Shown here piece by piece: positions 12,042 through 29,396 of a DNA stretch of 48,744 bases. The notes under the pieces are model-generated. The model was not told where the DNA came from. It worked only from the letters and a program-made list of their open reading frames with translations, and did no database searches. The position numbers and the translations under genes are program-made. This DNA is from Patescibacteria group bacterium (GTDB lineage Bacteria > Patescibacteriota > Saccharimonadia > UBA4664): positions 1 to 48,744 of the forward strand of contig JAQGHG010000021.1 in the NCBI GenBank assembly GCA_028288925.1. Direction: 5' to 3'. Each line of letters begins with the position of its first letter. The first letter of the stretch is position 1.

Positions 12042-12095
12042 GGAGACTCCTTTTGTGATGGTGTTTAAGTCTGTAGGGTACGGGAATTGAACTTT

Positions 12096-12126: not shown

Positions 12127-12133
12127 TCTGCAA

Positions 12134-12544
12134 ATGATTGATAAATTTAAGCAACATCTCAAGCACGCCGGCCAAAAGGTTACCCAGCCGCGACTGGCGG
12201 CTTTCGCCTTTCTACAGGAACACGACCCCACTACGGCGGCGGCGATGATTGAGTATTTGGCGCCGGCGATTGACCGGGCAAGTGTCTACCGGGCCTTGGC
12301 GCTATTTCGCAACCTGGATATTGTTCACGACATTGTGGCAGGCGGTCACCGAATGATTGAGTTGACCGATAGTTTTGACAGCCACCACCATCATCTTTCT
12401 TGCACGCGGTGCGGACAGCATGAAAGCATCGAAGACGATGAGATCGAGCGGCAGCTTTCGGCGGTCGCGCGGGCACGAGGCTTCGCGCCGACGAGCCACC
12501 AGATCCAGATCAGCGGGCTATGCCGGATGTGCCGGCAAGCATAA
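12134..12544 (+). CDS. Fur family regulator (Zur-like)
   Basis: TQPR..SVYRAL, HHHHLSCTRCG, C-terminal CRMC; divergent from the metal ABC operon. Confidence 0.9.
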   Translation: MIDKFKQHLKHAGQKVTQPRLAAFAFLQEHDPTTAAAMIEYLAPAIDRASVYRALALFRNLDIVHDIVAGGHRMIELTDSFDSHHHHLSCTRCGQHESIEDDEIERQLSAVARARGFAPTSHQIQISGLCRMCRQA

Positions 12545-12601
12545 GGGTCTTTAGCCTTTTTGCATTTTTGGTACAATACTCGCATAAGTAGAGGAACAAC
12601 A

Positions 12602-12781
12602 ATGGCCAAACATACTGAGGTAACGAAGGATTACGGCGCCGGCGGAGTGGCGTTGGCGGGTTGTTTTATCGGCGGCGTGGGTGTTGGCTTGGCGATCAAC
12701 CCTCAATCTATCCTTCCGGGAGCAATTATTGGCTTGGGCGTGGGCCTGGTCGTGATGGCGGTGATGGCACGTTCGCACTAA
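12602..12781 (+). CDS. Small two-TM membrane protein
   Basis: GAGGA RBS, 59 aa with two Gly-rich hydrophobic helices. Confidence 0.6.
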   Translation: MAKHTEVTKDYGAGGVALAGCFIGGVGVGLAINPQSILPGAIIGLGVGLVVMAVMARSH

Positions 12782-12811
12782 TCGTACGGATACACCGGAG
12801 CGGGGGTAGAA

Positions 12812-13468
12812 GTGCAGCGTATTAAGTATTTCTTTGGATTCTTCCCGTCGGAGCTGTTTTATAGGCTCTCGGCGGTTTCGGTGTGTTTTTGGGCGCCTAT
12901 CGCATTGTTTGTAGTGCTGGCCAACGAGGTAAAAGAGCACGAGCTCTTATACGGGGATTACGCGATCTTGCAGGCTATCCATAGCATGGCGTCGCCGGCC
13001 CTGGACGGGCTGGCCATGGTCATAACCAATGCCGGCGGCCCAGGATTTATTTTGGCCGCCACGCTCATGCTGACGCTGGTACTCGCCCGGCGCCGACAGC
13101 GGCGGCTAGCGAGCTTCGCAATGTTCGCCGTGGGCAGCGCGGTGGTGATGAACACAGTTCTGAAACTGATCTTCCAGCGCAGCCGGCCGTCGCTTTGGCA
13201 GACGCTCGTGACCGAGAAGAGCTACTCGTTTCCGAGCGGTCACGCCATGGCCAGCAGCGCCTTGGCCTTTGCGGTGATCGCTTTGTGTTGGCATACCAAG
13301 TGGCGCTGGTACGTAGTCGCGGGCGCCACGGCATACTTTGTCGCGGTGGGGCTGAGCCGGGTGTATCTGGGAGTGCACTATCCGTCCGATGTGCTAGGAG
13401 CGTGGTGTATTAGCCTGGCGTGGGTGGTTACGATTTATGCGGTGGCGCGGAAATACGGCAACCGGTAG
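12812..13468 (+). CDS. PAP2 family phosphatase
   Basis: K..F.R.RP, SFPSGHA, SRVYLGVHYPSDV motifs. Confidence 0.93.
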   Translation: MQRIKYFFGFFPSELFYRLSAVSVCFWAPIALFVVLANEVKEHELLYGDYAILQAIHSMASPALDGLAMVITNAGGPGFILAATLMLTLVLARRRQRRLASFAMFAVGSAVVMNTVLKLIFQRSRPSLWQTLVTEKSYSFPSGHAMASSALAFAVIALCWHTKWRWYVVAGATAYFVAVGLSRVYLGVHYPSDVLGAWCISLAWVVTIYAVARKYGNR

Positions 13469-13498
13469 CCGGCTACTGGCTCGACGCGAGTGGGATAG

Positions 13499-16279: not shown

Positions 16280-16652
16280 AGTGCCCCTCCTTCCCGAGTC
16301 TGTCCGTTTTTATCATCCCTGAGCGACCCAGATAATTCACTGGCGATAGTTACATAATATTCTCCACCCCGCGCGGTCGGCGGCCTTGGATGATCGGCTG
16401 TCACTCCGGCGAAACACTTATGGTATGCCCGAAAAACGAGTGTCTCTCCCACTAGCGATTATCGAGGTTAATTTCCGGCTTAATTTGTTTCTTCCGGCAC
16501 ACGGCGGATAGAGGTGAGACAATGCCCTCAGCTAGAACCATAGTGGTATTTTGCCTGCGCTGTGTCGATTAGACCTCGCTGCTTGGAGCCGCCGTGTGAC
16601 CTAATCCCTATTCAGCGGGCATTAAGCGCTCCAGCCAAGAAGGTGGGGACGA

Positions 16653-17000
16653 ATGACACGTCATCAGCACGAGATATTAAAGACCAGCACCGAGAAGCGC
16701 ATTCTCAACGAATTTGGGTCTAAGATACTTAACGAGGAGCGGCTAGACAACGTGATCCTGCTGAGGAAGAGCGGACACTTAACCGACCATTCGGATATGC
16801 CCTTTTATTGCGAATGCGATGACTCAGAATGTGTCGAAACTATCGCGATGTCTACCGACGAATACCAGCGGATGCACCTCAGGAGCAAATACTTTACTGT
16901 GGCGCCCAGCCATGTCCGTCTCGATTTGGAGGAGATTGTAGATTCCTTCAGCACCTACTCCCTCGTGAGGAAGTTTTTTCCTCGGCCTAAGGTGCATTAG
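16653..17000 (+). CDS. Hypothetical protein with F-x-CEC-x4-C...H putative metal site
   Basis: 115 aa ORF with purine-rich RBS; FYCECDDSEC..EY..F.VAPSH. Confidence 0.6.
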   Translation: MTRHQHEILKTSTEKRILNEFGSKILNEERLDNVILLRKSGHLTDHSDMPFYCECDDSECVETIAMSTDEYQRMHLRSKYFTVAPSHVRLDLEEIVDSFSTYSLVRKFFPRPKVH

Positions 17001-17023
17001 GAATGTCAGCATCTCGAGTTCGC

Positions 17024-17500
17024 CTACGCGTCGAGCTGTGTTTCCATGTGCTTAAGAAGCCGCCCGTTCAGTTCCTCCAGCTTCATCAGGGCAGTTTTAA
17101 ATTCGGTAATATCTATTGCTACAGTATAGATGCCAACGACTTGGCCTTTTTCTCTAATCGGCTCCACTCTAATGTCGTTATAATATATGTCACCCTCCTG
17201 TCCGCCGTTGAGTGTACTCTTAAACATCTCTCGTACGCCTTTTTTGCCTTCGAGCGCCCGTTTTTTGATAGCGGTGAGTTTTACCGCTTCACTAGCGGGG
17301 AGCCAATCAGCCTCGGTCTTGCCGATTAATTCCTCGCCTGCCATGCCAGGATGAGTGTTGAAGAAATGGGTATAGCGGAGGTTCAAATCTTGTTGCGATA
17401 TCGCGACTCCTGAGTTTCGCAAGGCGTTATCGAGGGTTGCCCGACTAGCCTTAATTTCTGATATAAGTTTTTTATGCCTATTCACATCTAGCTTCTCCAA
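17024..17500 (-). CDS. Stand-alone PAS-domain protein
   Basis: QDLNLRY..N....EELIGKT..D, PIRE.GQVVG....DITE followed by a coiled coil. Confidence 0.7.
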   Translation of the reverse strand: MEKLDVNRHKKLISEIKASRATLDNALRNSGVAISQQDLNLRYTHFFNTHPGMAGEELIGKTEADWLPASEAVKLTAIKKRALEGKKGVREMFKSTLNGGQEGDIYYNDIRVEPIREKGQVVGIYTVAIDITEFKTALMKLEELNGRLLKHMETQLDA

Positions 17501-17756
17501 TCCGGGCTTCGTAAAGGGAGGTGTCTTGTCGCAACCTTATGCTTCTAAATTTATGCCGTTAAATAGCTGCAATCATTGTGCAACATAACAAAGCGGCGAG
17601 CTTTAATTTGTGATTCCGCTTCATTATGACAAAAATGACAAGTTCGTTCAGGAAGCTGTAGTGGAAGAATTGCCGAGGCAGGTAGGTCACATGGGCCAAA
17701 GATTTACTTGCCCATCCATGTTGTGTTGTCTGAGCTCCTTGTGCTTACTGTGAGCG

Positions 17757-17894
17757 TCATACACCGCTCCGACTGCCAATCTGAGCGAGCACCCTGCTAA
17801 GGGCGATGGACGCGGCAGAGCATTGGCCGGTCGAGACAGGCTTATACCGATAGGACTTGAGTGCGGTTTGGATTGCTGAATCGTTGAATGACAT
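17757..17894 (-). CDS. Putative 45-aa small protein (absent from the ORF track)
   Basis: GGAGG RBS before ATG 17894; MSFNDSAIQTALKSYRYKPVSTGQCSAASIALSRVLAQIGSRSGV*; downstream of a consensus promoter. Confidence 0.4.
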   Translation of the reverse strand: MSFNDSAIQTALKSYRYKPVSTGQCSAASIALSRVLAQIGSRSGV

Positions 17895-18076
17895 TTACGA
17901 CCTCCATTTCCAGTCGCCTAGTTGAAATAGGCTTAGTACTACAAATTGTTGGGTTCTTATGGCGGCGGTTCGCGCGCGCCCTGAAGAACGGTTGGTAATT
18001 ACTTATAGCAACTAGACGTTTGGAAAGGGATGTCTACTATCGAGAGAGCCGGGTGAGTTCCCGGGTAGGTGTATTA

Positions 18077-18105
18077 AATATAGCACAAGTGTTTCATTCT
18101 GTCAA
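18077..18105 (-). promoter_or_regulatory. Near-consensus sigma70 promoter with extended -10
   Basis: Minus strand TTGACA-N17-TATATT, with TGn directly before the -10. Confidence 0.7.
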
Positions 18106-18125
18106 GCTGTCGGGCCGCATAACTA

Positions 18126-18155
18126 AATTAAGAGGCACCTATGTGCCTCTTAATT
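18126..18155. terminator. Perfect 13-bp hairpin at the distal edge of the cassette array
   Basis: AATTAAGAGGCAC-CTAT-GTGCCTCTTAATT. Confidence 0.7.
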
Positions 18156-18435
18156 GCGGACTCGTGGAAGACGTCGCGGTGATGTGGCTTACTAACTAAC
18201 AAAAACGGGACTGGGACTTGGGGCTCGAACAGATTCTTAACTCGATCAGCTACATCTAGGAGCTTATTTATATCCTCCAATGTCTTCCACTTTTGATAAT
18301 ACAAAACGTAAATTATGAAATCAAGAGTCTTTTCGTATTAGTAGCCCGAACTGGGGGGGAACAGCTTCTCCTGAACGACGGCTTCCCGCTTGGCCGCCGA
18401 TGATGGTACTTCAGCCCGCTGTTGATATCGTGAGT

Positions 18436-18780
18436 CTATGCTGACTGAATGAGTCCGATGCTGTTGCCGTCAGCGTCCTTTACGTAGGCTACCAACATGC
18501 CTCCGCCCACATCTCTGGGCTCTTGCTGGCTCTCCGCCCCAGCCTCCAGCAGTGTTTGGAGGCTTGCTTTAATATCCGCGACATTGAAAAAGCCGACCGG
18601 GCCGGTCATGCCCAGCTGGTGGGCGTTGGGGTCCAGACCAAACTCTCGGTCACCGATCCTATAGCCGACATAATAAGCCTCGTCCACGTAAGGCTCGACT
18701 CCCAAAAGCGGGCCGTATAGTTTCTTGGCCGCCTCTAGGTCTTTGACGGGATAGTTAACGTGTTTGGTACCTTCGCTCAT
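18436..18780 (-). CDS. VOC/glyoxalase family protein
   Basis: PVKDLEAAKKLY..LLG, DVGGG...AYVKDADGNSIGL; GGAG RBS. Confidence 0.88.
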   Translation of the reverse strand: MSEGTKHVNYPVKDLEAAKKLYGPLLGVEPYVDEAYYVGYRIGDREFGLDPNAHQLGMTGPVGFFNVADIKASLQTLLEAGAESQQEPRDVGGGMLVAYVKDADGNSIGLIQSA

Positions 18781-18868
18781 GTAAGCACTCCCTAGCTAAT
18801 TGGGCTTAATTATACAGCAGGGCCACTAATTGATGTCATGACTAAGTCCAATTAGCCGAGCTCTAAGC

Positions 18869-19180
18869 CTAATAATACTTCTGCACCCACTCCAGCATCG
18901 TATTAATAGCGGGCAACAGCGCGGCGCCACGGTCAGTCATGGAGTACATCGTGCGAGGAGGGAACTCGTTGACGACTTCCTTGGTAACCATCCCGGCTTC
19001 TTCTATCGTTATGAGCCGCTGCGAGAGCGTCTTCGTGTTGATACCGCACAGCCCCTGCAGATCCGTGAACCGCTTCGGCCCGTCCCTCAGCTGCCACATA
19101 ATGAGCGCCGTCCATCTGTCGCCGACGAGGTCGAGCGCTTGTCTCAACGCGGCATCTTTTCTTCCGATATCTTCTTTCAT
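18869..19180 (-). CDS. HxlR family winged-helix regulator
   Basis: ALDLVGDRWT..GPKRF..INTKTLSQRL..PPRT.YSMT; ATG 19180 lies 6 nt after TATAAT. Confidence 0.9.
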   Translation of the reverse strand: MKEDIGRKDAALRQALDLVGDRWTALIMWQLRDGPKRFTDLQGLCGINTKTLSQRLITIEEAGMVTKEVVNEFPPRTMYSMTDRGAALLPAINTMLEWVQKYY

Positions 19181-19250
19181 GCTCAAATTATACATTACTT
19201 GACAATGTAAAGTCAAATACTTTACTATCTAAAGCTATAACGAGAACACT

Positions 19251-19820
19251 ATGAAGATCCAAATTATTATTGGCAGTACACGACCAAACCGCCTAGGGCC
19301 ACAGATCGCCGGCTGGATGATCGGGCACATGCCGCACGATCCGTCGGTCGAGTACGAGCTGATCGACCTCATCGACTTTAACCTCCCTCTCTTCAATGAG
19401 CCGGTCCACCCGGTCCACAACAATTACACCCATGACCACACGAAGAACTGGAGCCAGAAGATACACCAGGGCGACGCCTTCATCTTTCTAACGCCGGAAT
19501 ATAACGCTGGTTATCCAGCCGCGTTGAAGAATGCGATCGATTACCTCTTTCACGAATGGCGGAATAAACCCGTCATGATAGCAAGTTATGGGGTGAAAGG
19601 CGGCCCCTCGGCTTCTTCCCAGCTGCGCGCCGTCGCCGAACGGCTTACTATGCGCCCGACTCCGACTAGTCCCGCGTTCACTGTCCTGCGAGAATCCGGC
19701 GAGAGTGGTCATATTAAGGGTATTGAGGCCTCATTCGCGCCATATGAGGCGGACGTAAAGACAGCTGGCCGGGAGCTAATCGAGTTGGTCGTGACGACGC
19801 CGCAAGTGCAGACAGTATAG
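19251..19820 (+). CDS. NADPH-dependent FMN reductase
   Basis: IIGSTRPNR, TPEYNAGYPAALKNAIDYL..EW..KP. Confidence 0.92.
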   Translation: MKIQIIIGSTRPNRLGPQIAGWMIGHMPHDPSVEYELIDLIDFNLPLFNEPVHPVHNNYTHDHTKNWSQKIHQGDAFIFLTPEYNAGYPAALKNAIDYLFHEWRNKPVMIASYGVKGGPSASSQLRAVAERLTMRPTPTSPAFTVLRESGESGHIKGIEASFAPYEADVKTAGRELIELVVTTPQVQTV

Positions 19821-19931
19821 CAAATAATTTCTGGGGTGGAGCCACCCCGCATGTTTCGAACCGAGTGCTTTAAGGATGTAACGCACATAGTACAAGACCT
19901 CAAGTTTCGCTCGGTTACCATCATGCGTTAA
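19821..19931 (+). repeat. Junction repeat J6 (degenerate, hairpin arm lost)
   Basis: AATAATTTC-TGGGGTGG, then a frame (shifted +1) reading MFRTECFKDVTHIVQDLKFRSVTIMR*, homologous to the J1-J3 tails. Confidence 0.7.
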
Positions 19932-19940
19932 AATTATTTC

Positions 19941-20456
19941 ATGAATAGACTTATCTTCGTAACTGGTGCATCCGGTTCGGGAAAAACAACGGCCCTCAAA
20001 CAACTTGAACAAACTATTGGTGACTCATATACGTTCTTCTACTTCGATAGCGTTGGTGTGCCAACGCCTAAAGAAATGGAGAAGCAATACGGTTCGGGCG
20101 AAGAGTGGCAGAGACAGACGACAATTTTCTGGACGAAGAAAATGATGGAAAGAGCCGGTGATACAGTTCCTGTTTTGGACGGACAAATGCGATTGGCGTT
20201 CATTACTGATGCCTGCACCGCTAACGGTGTCAGCGACTACACCATCATATTGGTAGATTGTGACGATGCAGCCCGGCGTGCACGACTGGTCGGAAGGGCA
20301 CAAGAAGAACTGGCAAATGAGCAGATGATGAACTGGGCACGCTATTTGCGGGATGAAGCAAACTCGTCACAGCACGCGGTCATCATAGATAATTCGGCGA
20401 TGACGGTTGACCAAACGTGTTCTGCTTTACTAGAGATTATTGAAAAAACAAAATAA
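19941..20456 (+). CDS. P-loop NTPase / nucleoside-kinase-like protein
   Basis: IFVTGASGSGKTT Walker A, VLDG, R..RL..R lid. Confidence 0.8.
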   Translation: MNRLIFVTGASGSGKTTALKQLEQTIGDSYTFFYFDSVGVPTPKEMEKQYGSGEEWQRQTTIFWTKKMMERAGDTVPVLDGQMRLAFITDACTANGVSDYTIILVDCDDAARRARLVGRAQEELANEQMMNWARYLRDEANSSQHAVIIDNSAMTVDQTCSALLEIIEKTK

Positions 20457-20530
20457 TGCTCTGCTAAGCCGTTATTCGTGAATTAAGACTGGGGCCGGAT
20501 AGTGGACGTTAGAACCGCCCACATCCGACT
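20446..20530 (+). repeat. Junction repeat J5
   Basis: AACAAAATAATGC..AAGCCGTTATT arm, core TGGGGCCGG at 20490, tail WGRIVDVRTA (same type as J4). Confidence 0.75.
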
Positions 20531-20537
20531 CCTCCTT

Positions 20538-21668
20538 TTACGTAGTGAACAGATCGAGGTAGCGCCGGTATTCATAAACGCGTCCATAGGTCTTTTCTTT
20601 GTTGCGTGGGACCAGGACATCAAGTTTAACCAGCCGATCTATAACCTGCTGGGACCCAGCTCTGGTAAATCCAGTCCATCCCATCACCATGGCACTTGAT
20701 ACTACCGGCTGAGAGTAAAGTTTGTTCAAAACTTTCATACTGCTCTCGGACTCACGCTTTGCTAAAACTTGAATTTTTCGCATATCTTCATCGCGAATCT
20801 TGGCTATTTGATGGCATATACCGATGGCTTCTGTAGCCGTTTGGGCGACTCCTTCGGAGAAGAAATCAAGCCAGGCTTCTACTTTGCCCGCATGATATCC
20901 ATCAAGGCGGTTATAGTAGGTCTTTTGATGTCGCTTGAAGAAGCTTGAGAGGAACAATACAGGCTGCTCCAGCAGTCCATGGCGATACAGCTGTAGTGTT
21001 ATGAGTAGCCTTCCGGTTCGGCCGTTGCCATCTAGAAACGGGTAGATTGTTTCAAACTGTGCATGCATGAGCGCCGTCTGCACGAGAGGCAACGCGGCGG
21101 TTTCGTCGTGCAAGAAGTTTTCCAAATCTCCTAAGGCCCGCTTCATTTCGGCTACCGGCGGCGGCACGTACTTGGCGTCACTCGGCTTCGTCCCATCAAT
21201 CCAGTTTTGAGTTTGTCGAAAATGTCCTGGATCTGCGAAGTGGGTTGCTCTAGCTCCGAGCATCAGCTCGCGATGAAGCTCCTCAACCAGTCTCAGCGAC
21301 ATCGGCAAATCTGACAGACGGTTTATTCCATAGTGAAGCGCTTTCGTATAATGCAAAATATCATTGGCATCTGTTTCACCCTCGGCGATACCCGCCTCCA
21401 TCTCAATGGCGTCCACCATAGTAGCCTTAGTGCCCTCGATCTGGGCGGATGATGTAGCATCTTTCAGTACGAACATTTGCAAAAAGAAATCCACGTCCGG
21501 CAATTGATGGGTTGCGCCGTCTAATTTACCAACAAGTCCACGCGCCTGGTCGTACTTTTGCAAAAGTGGCAACGACAAGTTTAAGATGCCTTTTGGCGGA
21601 AAGGGGTCAGGAACAAAGGCCTTAAATCCCTCTGGCTGGGCAGTATTTGTGCCGATTGATGTATTCAT
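20538..21668 (-). CDS. Fic family protein (N-terminal inhibitory motif, C-terminal HTH) with catalytic His replaced by Tyr
   Basis: SSAQIEG inhibitory motif; FETIYPFLDGNGRTGR versus canonical HPFxDGNGR. Confidence 0.9.
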   Translation of the reverse strand: MNTSIGTNTAQPEGFKAFVPDPFPPKGILNLSLPLLQKYDQARGLVGKLDGATHQLPDVDFFLQMFVLKDATSSAQIEGTKATMVDAIEMEAGIAEGETDANDILHYTKALHYGINRLSDLPMSLRLVEELHRELMLGARATHFADPGHFRQTQNWIDGTKPSDAKYVPPPVAEMKRALGDLENFLHDETAALPLVQTALMHAQFETIYPFLDGNGRTGRLLITLQLYRHGLLEQPVLFLSSFFKRHQKTYYNRLDGYHAGKVEAWLDFFSEGVAQTATEAIGICHQIAKIRDEDMRKIQVLAKRESESSMKVLNKLYSQPVVSSAMVMGWTGFTRAGSQQVIDRLVKLDVLVPRNKEKTYGRVYEYRRYLDLFTT

Positions 21669-21764
21669 AGTTAGTATCTTTCTTAATCCGTATGTATACT
21701 AGAACATGATTTAGTATACATTACATTTTGAAAATATACTAAGTTTTCATTATTTTTTATACCA

Positions 21765-21868
21765 ATACAAAAAATAATGGCTATATGAAGCTATTATTTC
21801 GTAATAATTCCTGGAGCCGGATAGTGGACGATGTCGGAACCGCCACCCTCATGCATAAAGCGGCTTAA
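21765..21868 (+). repeat. Junction repeat J4
   Basis: ACAAAAAATAATGGC..AAGCTATTATTT..AATAATTCC arm, core TGGAGCCGG at 21812, tail WSRIVDDVGTATLMHKAA*. Confidence 0.8.
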
Positions 21869-22277
21869 GAGTGTCATCAACGATAGTTTGGGGCGTAATA
21901 AATCCCTGCCTCATATCTATTCCGAGCACACTCGCGCCCTCCTCGCAGAAGTTCACGTAGCTCTGCAACACAGGCAGCTCTGCCACATAATCAGCCGGCC
22001 AGATGAAAGCAAAGAAGCCCGGCTTTACCTCGACCAGCTCGGATCCGGCTTCACGTTCCCCGAAGTTGGCGATTTCTGCCGGCTTAAGCTCAAAATATGC
22101 TGCTTCAATATACGCGTCGACCGCGAATTGCAAGTTCAAAAAGGCGTAGTTATCAAACGGCGCATTAAAGACGCGGTTATAACCGGGAACGGTAACCTTA
22201 GTCAGCACTGCGGTCCGTCCTAGCGTAGCTTCAAGGCTGGCTTGTTTCATTAATGAACCATAAACAATGATATTCAC
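21849..22277 (-). CDS. Gamma-glutamylcyclotransferase family protein
   Basis: N-terminal IIVYGSLM, GY.RVF, ERE motif; AGGAG RBS. Confidence 0.75.
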   Translation of the reverse strand: MNIIVYGSLMKQASLEATLGRTAVLTKVTVPGYNRVFNAPFDNYAFLNLQFAVDAYIEAAYFELKPAEIANFGEREAGSELVEVKPGFFAFIWPADYVAELPVLQSYVNFCEEGASVLGIDMRQGFITPQTIVDDTLKPLYA

Positions 22278-22307
22278 GGAGAGTCTCCTTTTTATAAATT
22301 GGTTGTG

Positions 22308-22331
22308 GGGGCCCTGTCGAAACAGGGCCCC
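22308..22331. terminator. GC-rich hairpin between ligase and cyclotransferase genes
   Basis: GGGGCCCTGT-CGAA-ACAGGGCCCC; no U-run on the coding (minus) strand, so possibly stabilising rather than terminating. Confidence 0.5.
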
Positions 22332-22343
22332 TTTGTGAGTAAC

Positions 22344-23195
22344 CTAGCAACCGACTATCGGCGCAATGCTTTGCCAGTATGCTTCCAGGCAGCCATCACC
22401 ACGCCGACCCAACGGACGAATCTCCACCGTCAGCACATCGCCGTAGCGGCGCAGGCGGTAGTGCCACCAGATACTACGGAGAAACAGGTCAATGTCCAGA
22501 TTGGATACCGCCAACGGATTCAGGCGAACCGGCTGCCCCTGGTGCATCACGACATCATGCCGCGCCAACTGATTAGCGTAATCGGCCAAACTATCGAAAC
22601 CCTGGGGACCTGCGTACCGATCGGGCCGGTAGCTAGCGTTAGAGGCGGCAATGTAAGCCTGCCACCGCCGGTGGTTGGCCATGTAGTCGAGTCGCTGGAT
22701 CTCGGCTATCCACAGGGCGTTGACAACTCCGATGGCCTCCCACGGGTTGACATCAACCGTGAATTGAACCGACGAGCAACGGCATAGTTCCTCGAGCGCT
22801 GTCTGGCCATCCAGCTGGACCCACACTTGGTCACGTGGGTCACTGGACACATCGAGCAGACTATCAGCCCACAGAATTTCCGGGGCAAAGACAGGCCGCG
22901 CGTTGTAACGGGCTGCCACTCCGTAAAGCCAATTCAGCGCCTCGTGGGCCGCCCCTAGAAGCCCGTCAAAACTGCGGCATGGCCGAATGGCCAGCTCAAT
23001 CTTTTGACGACCCAGCTCCAGCGTTACCTCGCAGCCGAGCGGCCGGTTGTTGCTGGAGGCCAAGATGGCCCGGCTCACTGCCTGCGTGATGGGCTCTCCG
23101 CTCGTGGCGTCCACGAAATCGGTCTCAATTTCGCAGCCGATCTGCGCACCAGTCGTGGTCCGACCCGTTCCGTTGGTGAAGTGCTCCAGCAACAT
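22344..23195 (-). CDS. Glutamate-cysteine ligase (GCS2)/carboxylate-amine ligase fold protein
   Basis: IGCEIE, LELG..KIEL, SSVQFTVD, VEIRP motifs. Confidence 0.65.
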   Translation of the reverse strand: MLLEHFTNGTGRTTTGAQIGCEIETDFVDATSGEPITQAVSRAILASSNNRPLGCEVTLELGRQKIELAIRPCRSFDGLLGAAHEALNWLYGVAARYNARPVFAPEILWADSLLDVSSDPRDQVWVQLDGQTALEELCRCSSVQFTVDVNPWEAIGVVNALWIAEIQRLDYMANHRRWQAYIAASNASYRPDRYAGPQGFDSLADYANQLARHDVVMHQGQPVRLNPLAVSNLDIDLFLRSIWWHYRLRRYGDVLTVEIRPLGRRGDGCLEAYWQSIAPIVGC

Positions 23196-23231
23196 GACTT
23201 GCCTCTCTGGTTGCTCTCAACTCTCGTCCGC

Positions 23232-23261
23232 AAACGAAAGCCCCTCCCGGTTGGGAGGGGC
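23232..23261 (-). terminator. Attenuator terminator upstream of the ligase gene
   Basis: Minus strand GCCCCTCCC-AACC-GGGAGGGGC-TTTCGTTT. Confidence 0.75.
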
Positions 23262-23288
23262 CTAACTTTGTCTTATGACAGCATCAAA

Positions 23289-23348
23289 TCAGGCCGCTCC
23301 CCAGCGGTTATAAGAGATTAGATGAAGATGATGCTGACGTGGACTCAT
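23289..23348 (-). CDS. Putative leader peptide MSPRQHHLHLISYNRWGAA
   Basis: AAGGA RBS; its 3' end TGGGGAGCGGCCTGA is complementary to the terminator 5' arm TTAGGCCCCTCCCA. Confidence 0.6.
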   Translation of the reverse strand: MSPRQHHLHLISYNRWGAA

Positions 23349-23608
23349 AACTTTTCCTTAAAAACAAAGACCTTGAACGCATGGCACGGAAGTGCCCATG
23401 TATCCAAGGAACGAGAGGTAAATAAAAAGGACCTCCCGCGGTCCCATCCTTGTTCCTAAACCATCTCTGGCTTAGGCGCTCAGGCCGGCTCCGCTACTGC
23501 GACATCGGCTGCTTTATTTTACGGTTTGGCTTCCGTAGTGCATTTTGGCACTCAGCTCGCGGATCGTGACTCCGCTCAGACGCTTTATACATATTTAGCT
23601 GTTGACTC

Positions 23609-23637
23609 AACGTAACAGGCATAGGCCACTCTGTCAA
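23609..23637 (-). promoter_or_regulatory. Putative sigma70 promoter for the long leader
   Basis: TTGACA-N17-TACGTT with TGn extension. Confidence 0.5.
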
Positions 23638-23675
23638 TAGGAGTGACTCGAGCCCCATGATGGATTCGTATTTTA

Positions 23676-23817
23676 AACAAAAAATAACGGCTCCGTGAAG
23701 CCATTATTCCATAATAATTCCTGGGGCGAGCTAGGATTCAAGTTTCGAACAAGTTGCTTCGCCGAGATTTGCGCGATGGTGAACGATATTAGGCTTAAGT
23801 CGGTTCTTAATGCTTGA
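23676..23817 (+). repeat. Junction repeat J3
   Basis: Hairpin arm, TGGGGCGAG at 23722, tail WGELGFKFRTSCFAEICAMVNDIRLKSVLNA*. Confidence 0.9.
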
Positions 23818-24613
23818 GCCTTAGATTAACATTCTGGAAGCTTAGACCATCCTCGTCTTGGTAGCTTTGGCCGTCTTCGGTAAAGCCTGCATTTTTGAGG
23901 AGTTTGGCCGAGCCAGCGTTTTCCGTAAGGTAACGGGAGTACAAATATTCGTACTGACTACCGTTTTTCAGCCGTTCAACGAGAGTTTTAATGACAGCTC
24001 CCCCAATGCCTTGGCCGCGCACGCTAGGGTCGCCTAGCATGATGTGAATGGATGGCGCGAGGAGATACTGAGTGGCGTCTAAGCTGAGCCAAACCGCGCC
24101 AACAACCTTATCTTGGAACCGAATCATCCAAGTCTCTTGGTTGGTAGCTGTGATGAACTCTCTCATCCGCACCTGTTCTTCTTCCAGGGTTGAGGGTTTA
24201 TTATGCTCGTCGGTGTTGCCCATGAGTCGGAGGGTTTCGCGACCAGCTGGTCCTGCCAGCCACTTAACTGCCAACGGAGCATCTTGCTCGATATTTGGGC
24301 GCACCAGGGAAAGGTCGGCCAAGCGTGTTGATAGCTCTTTTAAGCGATAATTGGAGCCATTGGGATTACGGTCCAAGAAGCCCTGGCCAAATAGTTCACG
24401 CCTTAGCAGGGGCCAATCATTAAAGGTATGCCATCGCTTTAATATGTCGTTTACCTCTGCCTCGGTATAGGAGGTACTATATTCAGATTTGGTTGCTAAA
24501 TAAGCCAGTACCAGTAGCTGGTCCTTGTGCTTTGTAGGCCATTGCCTGACGCGACCTTTGTCATCTAAAAACTTGTGCTCATGTTGTTTATTCATGGCTT
24601 GCGGCTTGTTCAT
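23807..24613 (-). CDS. DUF2087 + GNAT acetyltransferase fusion
   Basis: N-terminal WP.K..YTEAEVN..L...DW..LRREL (DUF2087); C-terminal RGQGIG and N..S.KLL...GF (GNAT). Confidence 0.8.
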   Translation of the reverse strand: MNKPQAMNKQHEHKFLDDKGRVRQWPTKHKDQLLVLAYLATKSEYSTSYTEAEVNDILKRWHTFNDWPLLRRELFGQGFLDRNPNGSNYRLKELSTRLADLSLVRPNIEQDAPLAVKWLAGPAGRETLRLMGNTDEHNKPSTLEEEQVRMREFITATNQETWMIRFQDKVVGAVWLSLDATQYLLAPSIHIMLGDPSVRGQGIGGAVIKTLVERLKNGSQYEYLYSRYLTENAGSAKLLKNAGFTEDGQSYQDEDGLSFQNVNLRLKH

Positions 24614-24692
24614 GGATAAGGGCCATCTTCATAGATAGATTGTACCTTACTGGAGCCATTTGGGTTCGAAACCCATGAGGGTTGTTGACTTA

Positions 24693-24837
24693 AACAAAAA
24701 ATAATGGCTGTACAAAGCCATTATTTTACAATAATTCCTGGGGCGAGCTAGGGTTCAAGTTTCGAACAGAGTGCTACGCCGCAGTTTGTGCGATCGTGAA
24801 TGATATTAGGTTTCGTTCAGTATTAAGCTCATCCTAA
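24693..24837 (+). repeat. Junction repeat J2
   Basis: AAAATAATGGCT..AGCCATTATTTT hairpin, TGGGGCGAG at 24739, tail WGELGFKFRTECYAAVCAIVNDIRFRSVLSSS*. Confidence 0.9.
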
Positions 24838-24926
24838 AACTTCAAATCAGGTTGAAATCTTGGGGAGGGCCTCATCCCGCGATCGAACACGGGATGAGAT
24901 GTTACTTGCCCTCGCTTGCCGTGGGA

Positions 24927-25574
24927 TTAGGCGAGTAGCGGCCGACCCATCTTGACAGCGAACGCCTGTGCCACGGTGGGCGCTTCCAGAGCCCGGTGTA
25001 CGACCATGATCGGGCCTTGAGTCGGCACAACACCGTCGCGCAGAACTCGGAGGTACCAACCGCAGAGACCGTTGGCCGCCATGCGCTTGATCATCCGGTA
25101 GCGCCCGCCGCCGTAGTAGGTTTCGAGGGTCTCACATGGGGTACGCACCTTCGACACCTCGACGAGTGCCTCGCCCCACTCCCAGCGGTCACCGATGCGG
25201 ACATCGGCTTCAGAAGCACCTGCGACGCGAAGGTTTTCTCCGAGCGATCGGTTTTCCAAGCCTTCCTCGCCGAGCTCGTCGAGCCAGTGTGGGAGATGAA
25301 GTCCCCAGGGGTAGACGTAGACGGCCTTGTCGTTGCCGCCGTGGATCTGGCCGGGGTTGCCACCCTCAGTTTCCTTGGCGGTCTTGGGCCGAGTCTCGGT
25401 CGGCTGGTCGCCAGCCAGCCCGGTGAAGGTGAGGTAGAGCTCTCCCGCACCCGTGGGCTGCCGATCGATGCTTGACCAGAAAGGCTGGCCCTTCTTAGGG
25501 CCGCTGCGGTGAACGCCGATGGGTCGGGGCTGGCCGAGGCGAGTTTCGAGTAGGGTGATGGCCGGCGGCGACAT
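24927..25574 (-). CDS. MOSC domain protein (YiiM-like)
   Basis: GLAGD..HGG.DKAVY.Y, GENL, IGD..WGEA.VEVS..R.PC, GWYLRVL. Confidence 0.88.
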   Translation of the reverse strand: MSPPAITLLETRLGQPRPIGVHRSGPKKGQPFWSSIDRQPTGAGELYLTFTGLAGDQPTETRPKTAKETEGGNPGQIHGGNDKAVYVYPWGLHLPHWLDELGEEGLENRSLGENLRVAGASEADVRIGDRWEWGEALVEVSKVRTPCETLETYYGGGRYRMIKRMAANGLCGWYLRVLRDGVVPTQGPIMVVHRALEAPTVAQAFAVKMGRPLLA

Positions 25575-25685
25575 GTGTGCCTTCCAATCCAGGTTGTAGA
25601 GAACAGTAACTGCCGAATTTTATATTCTATACGATTAGTGGTCAAATAATTGTTTGGAAGAGATTATTGGGTCTTAAGTGTTGAG

Positions 25686-25822
25686 AACAAAATAATGGCT
25701 CTGAAAAGCCATTATTTTAGATAATTACTTGGGGCGAGCTAGGGTTCAAGTTTCGAACAGAATGCTACACCGCTGTTTGTGCGATGGTGAGTGATATTAG
25801 GTTCAAGTCGGTCATATCCTAA
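25686..25822 (+). repeat. Junction repeat J1
   Basis: AAAATAATGGCT..AGCCATTATTTT hairpin, TGGGGCGAG at 25730, tail WGELGFKFRTECYTAVCAMVSDIRFKSVIS*. Confidence 0.9.
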
Positions 25823-25830
25823 ACGCTGTG

Positions 25831-26907
25831 TCATTCTACGGTTTTTCGGCCGTTCCAAGTGCTTTCTTTAATAGCGGGCTGAGTAATTTCGACGATTTCG
25901 CGGGGGTTGATCTTGCCAAAAACATAACTTTCAATGTCGTCACCCCATTTATGCTCCACCGTTTGCCCGTCAATGTCCACCTTAACACCGGCATCAGGGC
26001 TGCGATCCTGCAGCTGCTGAAGCCACGATGGGGTCCGAACGGCGTGCTCGCGATAGGACACAATGTCTATTTTTGGAACTTCAAGCTTCAAAAGATAAAA
26101 CTTACGTTCTTCACCGCGCTTGCCATACTGCCGCCCTACGGCGGTCGCAATATCCTCATGCCCACTCACGGACAAAAATGGTGTAGCCGGATGCTCGCCG
26201 TGGAAGTGCCGCTCAACGGCCTCACCCGTCCAAGCTGATAGAGCCACGGCTTCGAAGTCTTCCTGTGGCTGATCGGAATCCGCGATAATGGTACTGAGAG
26301 GCGAAAGAAGACCATTCTCCCGTACGGACTGGAGTTCTTCGTCGGTGAGCCGAGTGCCGCGATACAAGATTTTCGTGCCCAACTCAGCTTTGAACTGTTC
26401 GCGAGCGCCTTGGTAATCTGGCGCGGTAATTCCGCCTGATTCGACCAGGGCCATGAACTCGGGAAGATGGGTCATAAAACCTGGGTCAAGGCTCAGCTGG
26501 CCGTATTGAGGATATTTTTCTCGGAGTTCGCCATAGGCTGTTTGCTCTTCTGGGCTCCCCCAGCCGCCCGTAGTTTTCCGCCATTGGTTGTCTCCGTAGG
26601 CTTCGCCGGAATAGTCCGCCATTACGGCACTCAGAAGCTCGTCTCGAGTGTGATGGGCTGGGTCCTCAAGCACGTCGAGTAACTGTTTTTGCTCTTCCGG
26701 GCCGCCCGTTTCGACTACGGCCTCATCTCTGCCGCGCAGACCGCGTCGTCGTCGCTCAAGGTTGCGAGGCGGCTTCGGGGTGCGCTCAGGCTGATCCGGT
26801 TCCTCGCGGGTTTGTTCTTGCTGCGCTAACGACAGTAAGGCGGTGTAATCCACGGACGGACCGCTTGGCTGATTTGGCTGGTTATTTTCGGTTTCTGCGT
26901 TTGCCAT
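25831..26907 (-). CDS. Hypothetical protein with putative C-terminal ADP-ribosyltransferase (R-S-E) domain
   Basis: Start ATG 26907 with AAGGGA RBS; LYRG, PFLSVS and DIESYVFGKI motifs in ART order. Confidence 0.55.
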   Translation of the reverse strand: MANAETENNQPNQPSGPSVDYTALLSLAQQEQTREEPDQPERTPKPPRNLERRRRGLRGRDEAVVETGGPEEQKQLLDVLEDPAHHTRDELLSAVMADYSGEAYGDNQWRKTTGGWGSPEEQTAYGELREKYPQYGQLSLDPGFMTHLPEFMALVESGGITAPDYQGAREQFKAELGTKILYRGTRLTDEELQSVRENGLLSPLSTIIADSDQPQEDFEAVALSAWTGEAVERHFHGEHPATPFLSVSGHEDIATAVGRQYGKRGEERKFYLLKLEVPKIDIVSYREHAVRTPSWLQQLQDRSPDAGVKVDIDGQTVEHKWGDDIESYVFGKINPREIVEITQPAIKESTWNGRKTVE

Positions 26908-26993
26908 GCTTTTGTCCCTTTGCTTTAGATATAGACTAGCATAAGCTCGTAAGATTACCGTTCGTGACCTATTTGTGTTTTTGTTCGATAAAT

Positions 26994-27036
26994 AACAAAA
27001 AACGGCTTTATAAAGCCGTTTTAAGCATAAGTGCAT
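26994..27036 (-). terminator. tRNA-His terminator, homologous to the hairpin arm of the junction repeats (J0)
   Basis: AAAACGGCTTT-AT-AAAGCCGTTTT; GGC-to-core distance 33 nt, as in J1-J5. Confidence 0.75.
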
Positions 27037-27114
27037 TGGGGCGAGAAATGGGGCTTGAACCCACGACCTCCTGGACCACAACCAGGCGCTCTAACCAACT
27101 GAGCTACTCCCGCC
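27037..27114 (-). tRNA. tRNA-His(GUG)
   Basis: Cloverleaf with G-1, anticodon GTG, C73 discriminator and encoded CCA. Confidence 0.96.
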
Positions 27115-27241
27115 ACATAGATATTTGACTTTTGGACTTTGGTATTTTAACCTATTTTACCCGATGAATCCAGCTCTTCGTAGGGACGCGAGTGGTGGCG
27201 ATTGCCGAATGGGCGGATTCCACCTATAATCACTTAGATTA

Positions 27242-27317
27242 CGGGGTGTGGCGCAGCTGGTAGCGCGCGTGCTTTGGGAGCATGAGGTCGAAGGTTCGAG
27301 TCCTTTCACCCCGACCA
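27242..27317 (+). tRNA. tRNA-Pro(UGG)
   Basis: CGGGGTG acceptor, anticodon TGG, GGTTCGAGTCC, CCA. Confidence 0.96.
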
Positions 27318-27323
27318 GGAATT

Positions 27324-28022
27324 ATGATGCAGACCTATTTGATTTTCGATTTTGACAGCACGTTTGTGAGCCTGGAAGGGCTCGATGAGCTGGCGCGGAT
27401 TACCCTGCGCGACGTGCCGGACCGGGCGGAACGTTTGGCGCGGATCGAGGAACTGACGAGGGACAGCATGGAGGGGCGGCTGGGCTTCGAGACGTCGCTA
27501 CAGAGGCGGCTGGCGCTGTTTGTTCCCCGCGACGAGCATATCGCGGAGACGGTGGCGCTTTTGAAAGACCGGGTGACGCCGTCATTTACGCGAAACCGCG
27601 CGCTCCTGGAGAGCCGGGCGGAGTCGGTTTATATTATCTCGGGCGGGTTCCGGGAGCTTATTATTCCGGTGGTAAACAGCTTTGGCATCGCGCCGGAGCG
27701 GGTGCTAGCCAATACGTTTGTCCGCGACGCTCAGGGTACGGTAACGGGCTGCGATATGGACAACTTTTGCGCTCAAAATGAGGGTAAGGTAAAGCAGCTT
27801 CGGGCTCTGGGCCTGGATGGGCGCGTGGTAATGGTGGGCGATGGCCATACGGACTACCAGGCGCGGGCGGCCGGGGTGGCCGACATGTTTGTGGCCTTCA
27901 CCGAGAACGTTGAGCGGCCGGGGATCGTGGAGCGGGCCGACGCGGTGGCGCGGAGCTTAAGCGAGGTATTAGCGGCCGTAGGCTTAACGGACGGGCTGGA
28001 AGCTGGTATAGTAGCGAAATAA
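27324..28022 (+). CDS. HAD-IB phosphatase (phosphoserine phosphatase-like)
   Basis: FDFDST, ISGGF, K, MVGDG.TD motifs; start at ATG 27324 just after tRNA-Pro. Confidence 0.88.
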   Translation: MMQTYLIFDFDSTFVSLEGLDELARITLRDVPDRAERLARIEELTRDSMEGRLGFETSLQRRLALFVPRDEHIAETVALLKDRVTPSFTRNRALLESRAESVYIISGGFRELIIPVVNSFGIAPERVLANTFVRDAQGTVTGCDMDNFCAQNEGKVKQLRALGLDGRVVMVGDGHTDYQARAAGVADMFVAFTENVERPGIVERADAVARSLSEVLAAVGLTDGLEAGIVAK

Positions 28023-28027
28023 ACCGT

Positions 28028-28102
28028 GCGGGTGTAGCACAGTGGTTAGTGTTCCTGCCTTCCAAGCAGGCTACAGGGGTTCGACTCCCCTCACCCGCTC
28101 CA
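28028..28102 (+). tRNA. tRNA-Gly(UCC)
   Basis: GCGGGTG acceptor, anticodon TCC, TCCA end. Confidence 0.95.
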
Positions 28103-28122
28103 AGGATTTATGTTTACGATTC

Positions 28123-28199
28123 GCCCCTGTAGCTCAGCTGGATAGAGCAGTGGACTTCTAAGCCAATGGTCGCAGGTTCGAATCCTGCCGGGGGCACCA
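28123..28199 (+). tRNA. tRNA-Arg(UCU)
   Basis: D arm with GGATA, anticodon TCT, GGTTCGAATCC, CCA; anticodon stem has two mismatches. Confidence 0.9.
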
Positions 28200-28212
28200 G
28201 AACTAATAGCCC

Positions 28213-28248
28213 ATCAAAAAGCCCCCTAACGCAGGGGGCTTTTTTGAT
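28213..28248. terminator. Bidirectional intrinsic terminator
   Basis: ATCAAAAAGCCCCCT...AGGGGGCTTTTTTGAT between convergent tRNA-Arg and hup. Confidence 0.9.
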
Positions 28249-28262
28249 CGAGAGATACGGAT

Positions 28263-28535
28263 CTATCGAATGGTTTCTTTGAGGCGTTTGCCGGCGCGGA
28301 AACGGGGCATGGCCATTTCGGGGATTTGGATCTCTTCCCCGGTTTGAGGATTTACACCCCGGCGTGCGGCACGCTTGCCTAAGTCAAAGGTCCCAAACCC
28401 GGTGATTGACACTTTCTCACCTTTCGCTACGGTCCGCTCTACGATATTCACGAAGGCGGATAGCGTTTTTTCAATCTGACGCTTGGTGGTATTCGTTTCG
28501 GCGGCAAGCGTTTCGATTAATTGTTGCTTAGTCAT
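28263..28535 (-). CDS. hup: DNA-binding protein HU
   Basis: 90 aa, GFGTF..R.ARRGVNPQTG..P.F.AGK.LK. Confidence 0.95.
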   Translation of the reverse strand: MTKQQLIETLAAETNTTKRQIEKTLSAFVNIVERTVAKGEKVSITGFGTFDLGKRAARRGVNPQTGEEIQIPEMAMPRFRAGKRLKETIR

Positions 28536-28595
28536 ATTCTGACACTCCCAGAGTTACATCTTCTACTCTACCGAGAGGCTCCCTAAGGGTAAAGG

Positions 28596-29396
28596 CTAAT
28601 TTTCCACAAATTGGATGATTTGCTCTAGGTGAGTGGCTTGGCCGGTCGTTGGATTAATGTCTATTAACAAAGCGCAAAATTGCATGGTACCCTGAGTTTC
28701 CAGTTCGTTGCGACTGCGTTCGTCGGTGAGCCAGCGCTGAATGATAATGTCGGTTTTGACGCCCAGGCAAGAATCGCGGCTGCCCACCATGCCGACGTCG
28801 GTGATATGCGCGGTACCCTTGGGCAGGAGACGGGCGTCAGCGGTGGGCACGTGCCAGTGGTCCCCGATAACGGCGGAGACACGGCCGTCCAGGTATTGGC
28901 CGATCACCAGCTTTTCGCTCGAAAAGTCGCCGTGGAAGTTTACAATGCGGGCCACTAGCGGCTCGTTTTTGGTTTCTTCGAGAATGGCGTCGATGGCATG
29001 GAGTGGGTTGGACTCACCGGGATCGAGGTAGCCGACGATTTGCCCCATGAGGCTCACTATGAGTACGCGCCCAAACGGCGTCTCGGCGATCTTGTAGCGG
29101 CGGCCGGGCGTGCCCTCGGGATAGTTGGCGGGACGCACCACGGGACCTTTGGGGTCCTCGAGGATGGGGTAAACTTCCTCGCGCTTGGTGGTCCAGTTGC
29201 CGCCGGAAAAGAAGTCTACGCCGGCTTCGCGCATCTCGTCGATGGCCTTGGGGCGCATGCCCTTGCCGTCGGAGAGGTTTTCGCCCTGCGCCACGACAAA
29301 GTCAATTCCCCGTTCCTGGATGAGGCCGGGGAGGACTTTTTTGATGGTTTGACGGCCGGGCCGGCCCATAATATCGCCCACGTAAAGGATTTTCAT
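28596..29396 (-). CDS. ymdB: YmdB-like metallophosphoesterase
   Basis: GDIMGRPGR, GEN, RPANYP, HVPTAD, ITDVGMVG; near rny. Confidence 0.88.
   Translation of the reverse strand: MKILYVGDIMGRPGRQTIKKVLPGLIQERGIDFVVAQGENLSDGKGMRPKAIDEMREAGVDFFSGGNWTTKREEVYPILEDPKGPVVRPANYPEGTPGRRYKIAETPFGRVLIVSLMGQIVGYLDPGESNPLHAIDAILEETKNEPLVARIVNFHGDFSSEKLVIGQYLDGRVSAVIGDHWHVPTADARLLPKGTAHITDVGMVGSRDSCLGVKTDIIIQRWLTDERSRNELETQGTMQFCALLIDINPTTGQATHLEQIIQFVEN

Follow-up and report, generated by a model that had tools for sequence, protein, structure and literature searches.

Start-less, conserved reading frames in a tRNA-His cassette array of a Saccharimonadia genome probably are the detached 3′ ends of large serine recombinase genes

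The window analyzed here is an entire contig (C25, 48,744 nucleotides or 48.7 kb) of a 1.22-Mb Saccharimonadia genome in 26 contigs (G000). In a stretch of lower G+C content to the left of its tRNA-His gene lies an array of six gene cassettes with seven junctions, J0 to J6, and junctions of this array carry short reading frames ("tails") of about 30 codons that lack a start codon and are conserved as protein. What are these frames, and what could conserve a peptide that cannot be initiated? We propose that they very probably represent the final ~30 codons, now detached, of large serine recombinase (LSR) genes whose crossover takes place inside their own open reading frame (ORF).

The junctions follow a general plan, in which a left arm, consisting of a hairpin and then about 14 nt, is followed by a core. 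Beside the tRNA gene, the common core TGGGGCGAG occupies 27037-27045 and is the reverse complement of the last nine bases of tRNA-His (CTCGCCCCA); its TGG is the encoded CCA end of the tRNA. An identical core is present at J0, J1, J2 and J3, making it a short core common to the attachment site attB and the junctions. At J0 the core runs on into the tRNA body, and the J0 arm together with the tRNA looks, from its sequence, like an unoccupied attB. The left side of every internal junction is a hairpin arm, not an LSR gene. The tRNA and the junctions are the following.

27037-27113, minus strand: tRNA-His(GTG), found by ARAGORN and by the Rfam tRNA model (62.3 bits)
26999-27036, no strand assigned: J0 left arm, hairpin 26999-27022 (self-inverted BLAST match 26999-27022) plus spacer aagcataagtgcat
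25685-25822, plus strand: J1, hairpin arm 25685-25729, core 25730-25738, tail frame 25730-25822 (30 codons and stop)
24694-24837, plus strand: J2, hairpin arm 24694-24738, core 24739-24747, tail frame 24739-24837 (32 codons and stop)
23677-23817, plus strand: J3, hairpin arm 23677-23721, core 23722-23730, tail frame 23722-23817 (31 codons and stop)
21767-21868, plus strand: J4, hairpin arm 21767-21811, core variant TGGAGCCGG at 21812, tRNA-Lys-type tail WSRIVDDVGTATLMHKAA and stop
20445-20550, plus strand: J5, hairpin arm 20445-20489, core TGGGGCCGG at 20490, Lys-type tail WGRIVDVRTAH..., one codon shorter and with its stop lost
19832-19931, plus strand: J6, the distal and most decayed junction, with TGGGG, a small GC hairpin and a tail remnant at 19851-19931 (profile E 2.4e-6)

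Upon re-translation, the tail peptides of the initial annotation of this locus proved exact: J1 (25730-25822) gives WGELGFKFRTECYTAVCAMVSDIRFKSVIS, J2 (24739-24837) WGELGFKFRTECYAAVCAIVNDIRFRSVLSSS, J3 (23722-23817) WGELGFKFRTSCFAEICAMVNDIRLKSVLNA and J6 (19851-19931) MFRTECFKDVTHIVQDLKFRSVTIMR, each followed by a stop codon. The reading from the core into the tRNA, WGEKWGLNPRPPGPQPGALTN and stop, was likewise reproduced. In the case of J6 the translation holds but its continuity with the core does not: the frame reading F-R-T is one base out of register with TGG, the core being decayed. That the tails are start-less was also borne out. Tails of the window are preceded by an in-frame stop 3-15 codons upstream, and in none of the 19 instances collected from the window and its relatives is this stop more than 39 codons away; most copies have no ATG, GTG or TTG at or before the W codon. 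When 13 tails from 11 metagenome loci are included, the stop lies 0-59 codons upstream, the longest open run before a metagenome tail being 59 codons, in a set biased to intact copies by a search pattern that required both conserved motifs.

The junction repeat is not confined to this genome. A DNA search located it beside tRNA-His, in a tRNA-Arg/Gly/Pro/His neighborhood, in 23 of 61 related genomes, and a protein profile of the tail gave 26 matches in 13 of the 53 genomes of the order, all within open frames of 32-80 aa. A pattern scan across genome contigs returned nine loci, three of them real tails (apparently those of G011, G004 and G008); the remaining six, from unrelated bacteria, matched by chance. 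A few tails terminate in -LAA or -IAA. Decay has affected 6 of the 19 instances: one has its W codon changed to a stop, two are frameshifted, one is truncated, one has lost its stop and one contains an internal stop.

The origin of the tails is best seen in another genome, G004, where an LSR with resolvase, recombinase and zinc-ribbon domains (PF00239, PF07508 and PF13408; protein P0002, L056:2757-4391, minus strand) lies directly beside tRNA-His and convergent with it. Its ORF passes the W-G-E core and ends in ...AKKMNAWGERWGSNPRPTGPQPVALTN, which is the tRNA antisense derived in the initial annotation (...AKKMNA-WGERWGSNPRPTGPQPVALTN and stop). A 35%-identical LSR, P0026, ends in the near-identical antisense peptide WGERWGLNPRPTGPQPVALTN. 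Conversely, a hidden Markov model (HMM) of the tails matched 8 of 25 LSR homologues, with E values of 1e-8 to 1.6e-3, within about 30 residues of the C-terminus, except for P0020, which has about 80 more residues after the match. Such matches to the extreme C-terminus of LSRs, together with the tRNA-derived end of the G004 protein, support the proposal of the initial annotation that a recombinase ORF runs through the attachment (att) site.

After the conserved Trp, the homologues end in one of three ways. The first is tRNA antisense, either WGERWG.NPRP (P0002, P0026) or WLRRSGSNRRP; an LSR with the latter ending overlaps tRNA-Asn in G008. The second is a stop straight after WGE, as in P0003-9 and P0012, which terminate exactly at ...WGE; the tRNA-His antisense of G006, G011 and G012 has a stop at this very place. 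The third is a tail of 20-35 residues, W......[FILV]R[TKNH]...., and three database LSRs (P0013, P0020 and P0091) read from WGE into an FRT tail. Proteins labeled Streptomyces, Kitasatospora and Frankia end in W.AL..KFRTEC..EI.AL..D..FR.L or WGELLDEFRTQYY.... To the left of the core, the J2 hairpin arm terminates in AATAATTCC, matching the N-N-S codons that stand ahead of Trp at the 3′ ends of many of these LSR genes. The initial annotation had read the arm in frame in J2-J4, as TKNNG..K(P/L)LF.NNS-W. The arms of J2 and J3 do read TKNNG..KPLF.NNS-W, but this stretch is mostly hairpin, and only its NNS-W part is homologous to recombinase 3′ ends, matching ...KNNSWGE in P0003 and P0006. Through both the tail HMM and the AATAATTCC of the left arm, the junction sequence is thus homologous to the 3′ end of the LSR gene itself.

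This arrangement is widespread. The family of the window has 30 PF07508 frames, spread over 16 of its 26 genomes, and 15 of these frames terminate within a tRNA gene convergent with them, namely Val, His, Arg (two), Ala (two), Leu (four), Met, Asn, Glu (two) and Gly, representing 13 different anticodons. A full HMMER search with the G004 LSR as query gave 8756 relatives (E<=1e-3). We surveyed endings across the clade in 135 aligned homologues of 450-620 aa, 110 of which have the conserved Trp: 62 continue with the tRNA-antisense-like pattern W+5+SN, a stop follows within five residues in 24, another 22 have a tail (W+6+hydrophobic-R-[TKNH]) and 2 do something else. The crossover of this LSR clade is thus placed within the LSR gene itself, some 30 codons ahead of the stop, and what remains at the other end of the element best explains the tails.

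The only LSR of G000 itself is on contig C9 (90906-92531, minus strand). It ends in ...KSKMVATGRFELPTKSL and stop inside a convergent tRNA-Met gene (90875-90949) and reads the CCA in a different frame, A TGG TGG being read as M-V. A gene for a tyrosine recombinase is located 1 kb from it. No convincing copy of the tRNA-Met 3′ end was found in the assembly as a second att for this element, which may run off the end of the contig.

Two arm types adjoin the tRNA in different genomes, a GGAATTAT-hairpin and an A[AT]G[CT]ACTTATGCTTA-hairpin (in tRNA orientation). The J0 type of arm, A[AT]G[CT]ACTTATGCTTA, is found in G004 on the far side of the integrated 10-kb LSR element, at its end; because of this position, such an arm plus the tRNA, as at J0, would be the site used by a G004-type element. 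The element itself (L056:2819-12941, 10 kb) encodes Mrr-like and HNH nucleases, DUF5659, DUF5677 and DUF3644, and looks like a small defense-type island without obvious phage or conjugation genes. J4 (21812) and J5 (20490) carry another tail family, W[SG]RIVD.V(R/G)TA, which they have in common with an array at tRNA-Lys on contig C19. As J4 and J5 bear this Lys-type tail, two target types are mixed in the tRNA-His array. The C19 array (6580-15420, downstream of tRNA-Lys(CTT)) has its own tail family, WRAIV.AVRTA..., and its arms are of the same GGAATTAT-hairpin type.

Are the tails conserved as protein? We counted substitutions pairwise by the Nei-Gojobori method (NG86) over codons 4-30 of 16 intact tails from this genome and its relatives. 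The tail frame has a ratio of nonsynonymous to synonymous changes (dN/dS) of 0.34 and no stops, versus 0.45-1.46 and 13-42 stops in the other five frames. This ratio, well below 1, agrees with the protein-level conservation put forward in the initial annotation. The distal codons, 19-30, are the best conserved part (dN/dS 0.20), and their conservation spans genomes of two families (f1 and f8). Column entropies at the three codon positions are 0.76, 0.66 and 1.01; variation falls at third positions and includes AGG/CGG and AAG/CGT exchanges. The conservation of the tails exceeds chance.

A structural model suggests what such a tail would encode. In an AlphaFold2 model of the Kitasatospora protein P0021, built from a 135-row alignment (mean predicted local distance difference test score, pLDDT, 94.8), the 31 residues after W516 are predicted to form three short helices with a pLDDT of 90-96. 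Solved LSR structures, including SPbeta-type 9dxh (Z 16.9), LI 4kis (Z 14.0), Bxb1 9iu2 (Z 14.1) and phiC31, align to residues 13-511 of P0021 and not beyond; cryo-EM entries released in 2026 are among these matches. Because these alignments stop at residue 511, the tail would be an extra module, and the integrated, tail-less product would keep all canonical domains.

The beginning of the tail may also have the geometry of an att half-site. All seven tRNA-His arms have GAAC, from the T-loop, at nt 21-24 counted from TGG, and 14 of 16 tails have CGAAC at nt 25-29 (GAAC at 26-29). This offset matches that described by Rutherford et al. (PMC3783163), in the section cited, for the zinc-ribbon motif, which in attP is displaced outward by 5 bp relative to attB. 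Since CGAAC is 5 bp further out than the GAAC of the T-loop arm of the tRNA, the first ~29 nt of the tail may double as the P′ half-site of attP.

Contigs holding window sequence were recovered from soil metagenomes of one study. In run X3, a contig with a depth of 31.6 joins 25728 directly to 27036 across 10 common nt, so that the whole of cassette 1 (25730-27036) is precisely missing between two cores, and there is almost no depth over the skipped cassette. Depth is absent over roughly 25975-26978 in both X2 and X3, with a bridging contig for X3 only; the X2 gap, standing alone, shows nothing and was set aside as a sign of cassette loss. The presence of cassettes at cores thus differs between samples, and for this reason the junctions are probably still substrates for recombination. 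An X1 contig joins 25729 back to 24739, a step of 991, as for a circular or tandemly duplicated MOSC cassette. We discounted it as evidence for a circle, the two junctions sharing 32 identical nt and an assembly artefact being possible; the contigs presumably come from a 31-mer graph. An X4 contig joining 19824 to 20491, with 19825-20490 replaced by 34 other letters, was too thin (depth 2.4) to be used.

We propose the following mechanism. In this LSR clade, the att crossover lies inside the recombinase ORF, at the codons for W-G-E, which are the reverse complement of the tRNA-His 3′ end CTCGCCCCA. On the circular element, the ORF would read ...NNS-WGE-L.FKFRTEC....AMVNDIRFRSVL.. and stop, and the circular form would encode the full-length enzyme. 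After integration, the gene body adjoins the tRNA and reads into its antisense strand (WGE[KR]WG.NPRP... and stop, or a stop straight after WGE), with the true tail staying at the far end of the element, behind a foreign arm. In the window, a unit is made up of a tail, its cargo (one gene or two) and a hairpin arm that closes with the LSR-like ATAATTCC; the array terminates at the tRNA with an attB-like arm. On this sequence evidence, the units appear to be LSR-less cassettes, left behind or mobilized in trans by an LSR. They might be left when an LSR element excises from a composite; mobilization in trans would be the alternative route. By the rules for canonical LSRs, an attL-like site should not recombine with attB.

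The two constraints on the tail would overlap in part. We read codons 1-10 as doubly constrained, by the att half-site and by coding, and codons 11-30 as constrained by coding only; the DNA motif may be what keeps the R-T of the tail invariant. The distal 60 nt would be conserved because they encode the three-helix C-terminal module, which would exist only in the enzyme encoded by the circle or in an LSR lying directly upstream of another tail. More speculatively, gain or loss of the tail could control directionality, activity or stability. In a further version of this idea, which we consider doubtful, the tail would be a sensor of the integration state that replaces the recombination directionality factor (RDF): the full-length LSR of the circle would integrate, the LSR of the chromosome, complete except for the tail, would excise, and orphan tails would be exchangeable 3′ ends. 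An LSR element excising with a distal junction would then gain the intervening LSR-less cassettes as well as the tail of that junction.

Several observations weigh against our interpretation of the tails or soften it. A domain scan of the array (window 19.8-27.1 kb) revealed no recombinase gene, and the one LSR of G000, on C9, targets tRNA-Met in another frame. We looked for a long ORF running into the tails and found none in the 19 instances; none of the 26 tail matches from the 53 genomes of the order lies in an open frame of >80 aa, and none of the 13 metagenome tails is fused to a long ORF. Because no LSR is present in the array, and a search of 39 tails from genomes and metagenomes gave no fusion to an LSR, the tails of the window are orphans. 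An LSR with a tail of the Saccharimonadia type (..AMVNDIRFRSVL) was not seen, nor was a circle bearing such a tail, the fused examples being more distant homologues. As for the numbers, the dN/dS values are pairwise counts on related sequences, not tree-based estimates; the tRNA-antisense label of the 62 surveyed homologues is a peptide pattern and not a DNA-level assignment; the match between the arm and tail profiles is best at an offset of +5 (0.400), with -3 close behind (0.378); and the six decayed tails out of 19 fit scars as well as parts in use. This last point leads to an alternative that accepts the same origin for the tails. The window copies could be dead attL scars, with inherited conservation and without a present role, a possibility that we consider less probable than not. 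Apart from the decayed copies and the absence of LSR fusions, it accounts for the out-of-register J6 and for the lack of an LSR in the array, or of one for tRNA-His anywhere in the assembly. It sits less well with codons 19-30 being the best conserved across families f1 and f8, with the differences in cassette content between samples, and with the G004 LSR element residing in the same kind of array.

That the ~90 nt are an extended recombination arm, conserved at the DNA level and never translated, seems improbable. The resemblance of the first ~29 nt to an attP half-site and the persistence of the distal DNA motif in frameshifted copies such as L004 would fit this idea, but the half-sites of LSRs are given as ~25 bp in the section of PMC3783163 cited, whereas conservation here peaks 55-90 nt from the core. 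The third-position variation, with its AGG/CGG and AAG/CGT exchanges, also speaks for translation, as do the homologous peptides that end real LSR proteins and fold confidently as helices in prediction. Independent micro-genes, expressing a 30-aa peptide from each junction, would explain why frames are intact and of similar end length in 13 of 19 instances. The general lack of start codons, the proximity of upstream stops and the homology to LSR C-termini make this very improbable. We give hardly any credence to a structured RNA, such as a tRNA-like 3′ element of the minus-strand cassette transcripts. The repeat does lie downstream of minus-strand cargo, and a mimic of the tRNA 3′ end is followed there by a terminator-like hairpin, but an Rfam search (E<=1, 18000-29000) gave four tRNAs, a weak T-box-like match and noise, none of it in the tails, and RNAalifold on 14 tails yielded -2.2 kcal/mol and 0 compensatory pairs for the plus strand and left the minus strand unpaired. 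An integron or tyrosine integrase was also considered and rejected: PF00589 matches are on C11 and C9 only, with none in or next to the array.

The nearest precedent for the array tails is dsiB, the serine recombinase gene of the Dehalococcoides ssrA islands (McMurdie et al. 2011, PMC3146451); this and the comparisons below refer to the sections of the papers cited. Like the array here, these islands stand in tandem downstream of a small-RNA gene, and at their borders the 3′ end of that gene recurs as direct repeats. The dsiB gene overlaps attL, and its 3′ end lies over the att repeat with the stop outside the island, as in the G004 LSR; this type of overlap is also general in the family of the window, as the 15 frames that end in tRNA genes illustrate. 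McMurdie et al. suggested that DsiB might be fully functional only on the circle or beside an island supplying a 3′ fragment, noted that the overlap is divergent in length and sequence, and doubted its functionality; they also made the same length argument as we do, that the tail-less product has all canonical domains (PMC3146451). The target of DsiB is tmRNA (ssrA), in contrast to the tRNA genes targeted here. Unlike what is reported for DsiB, the tail here is conserved at the protein level and shows homology to the genuine C-terminus of distant LSRs, and the arrays are made up of single-gene cassettes that lack an LSR. No six-gene integration module of the Dehalococcoides type was seen in the G004 element.

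Archaeal integrases of the SSV1 type likewise have attP inside their own gene, target tRNA genes and have their product altered by integration, a self-overlapping design called exclusive to archaea (PMC8371274). Those are tyrosine recombinases whose gene is split and whose enzyme is disrupted, whereas the bacterial serine recombinases here would lose only a module of ~30 residues. Mycobacteriophage BPs, whose immunity depends on integration, similarly has attP in a coding region, and its integrated and free forms differ in a C-terminus (PMC4557955). In BPs the gene concerned is the repressor and the recombinase a tyrosine integrase; here it is the serine recombinase itself. BPs is said to employ an ssrA-like degradation tag, and a comparable role for the present tails would be a guess by analogy.

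Canonical phage LSRs (LI/A118, Bxb1, phiC31, SPbeta; PMC3783163) share with the clade described here the domains PF00239, PF07508 and PF13408, structural matches at Z 14-17 and a short core. They differ in that their attP is not reported within the gene, that their targets are mostly protein-coding genes and that they need a separate RDF. Accretion of integrase-less elements is captured by the concept of the cis-mobilizable element (CIME). Integrons, with IntI beside attI and with attC hairpins, do not match the array, whose junctions are tRNA-end cores and LSR tails. Tycheposon islands (bioRxiv 10.1101/2020.12.28.424599) are stacks at tRNA genes with partial tRNA repeats, many lacking a recombinase of their own. 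The tycheposon and cryptic elements have tyrosine recombinases in 910 of 937 cases, and the cited sections describe no junctions made of recombinase-gene fragments such as those seen here. Serine integrases have been stated to be not known, or rarely seen, at tRNA genes (PMC4383910; PMC3218068). In literature searched for serine recombinases at tRNA genes, also in Saccharibacteria and Patescibacteria, and for attP sites that overlap the 3′ end of a serine integrase gene, we found no description of the conserved, switchable tail of this clade or of arrays of LSR-less cassettes at tRNA genes.

This clade would thus depart from canonical LSRs in three ways: the crossover about 30 codons before its own stop codon, the targeting of the CCA end of many different tRNA genes and, because the crossover precedes the stop by that distance, a conserved C-terminal module, predicted to have three helices, that is present only in the free form. 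Large serine integrases are common tools for genome engineering, and how they discriminate between integration and excision is an active structural question. The tRNA-linked variable islands of the ultra-small Saccharimonadia genomes would be built from LSR-type units, including stacked recombinase-less cassettes with Fic, GNAT, MOSC, kinase and unknown genes. Should the doubtful sensor idea nevertheless be true, tRNA genes in Saccharimonadia, and in other lineages with this LSR clade, would be integron-like platforms for gene capture run by serine recombinases. Two statements would need qualification, as worded in the sections cited: that serine integrases do not specify tRNA genes (PMC4383910) and that self-overlapping att sites are an archaeal specialty (PMC8371274).

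The seven cargo genes, of which six are on the minus strand, lie between the junctions, one or two to a unit.

25831-26907, minus strand: cassette 1, ORF for a 358-aa protein (from the first ATG)
24927-25574, minus strand: cassette 2, MOSC-domain protein (PF03473, 1.8e-25)
23807-24613, minus strand: cassette 3, DUF2087 plus GNAT acetyltransferase (family match)
21849-23195, minus strand: cassette 4, two ORFs, 21849-22277 (no family) and 22344-23195 (weak glutamate-cysteine-ligase-like match)
20538-21668, minus strand: cassette 5, Fic-family protein, SoFic-like (PADLOC SoFic, 8e-103)
19941-20456, plus strand: cassette 6, small P-loop kinase-like protein (family match)

The cassette 1 protein has no match in Pfam, PADLOC or NCBIfam. 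We considered its gene (25831-26907) as a conserved flank of the tRNA; it has no homologue at the tRNA-His loci of six relatives and is therefore cargo. Apart from SoFic and some weak matches, cargo proteins without a known family remained unassigned in PADLOC and NCBIfam. The cassette 5 protein (20538-21668) matches PADLOC SoFic over its full length, yet scores 137.6 bits against the 550-bit cut-off of the NCBIfam equivalog. Immediately upstream of the 22344-23195 ORF, the one with the faint glutamate-cysteine-ligase-like similarity, there is a weak T-box-leader-like match (23404-23589, minus strand; 36 bits, gathering score 93, E 3.7e-5). It could be noise or a leader of the riboswitch type that belongs to a cassette gene.

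To the left of J6, the G+C content is low over 16300-19800 (0.48-0.52, versus about 0.58-0.60 elsewhere), and the genes there include HxlR, a glyoxalase-like protein and an FMN reductase; the stretch could be an older section of the island that lacks recognizable junctions. On the other side, the cluster of tRNA-His, tRNA-Pro, tRNA-Gly and tRNA-Arg (window 27037-28199; L056-L061) shows conserved synteny in five or more of the six relatives examined; the locus of G012 ends at a contig edge and shows Pro and His only. tRNA-His is the variable edge of the cluster in all six. In G006, G011 and G015, extra DNA is also found between other tRNAs of the cluster, and one G006 LSR reads into tRNA-Pro. 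The motif G[GAT]AATTAT plus a hairpin occurs directly after several tRNA genes (G000 C19:6657-6700 and C9:90790-90840). Cassette arms have it ahead of the core, and it is the counterpart of the NNS codons at LSR 3′ ends; it could serve as a common recognition element on the terminator side of the site.

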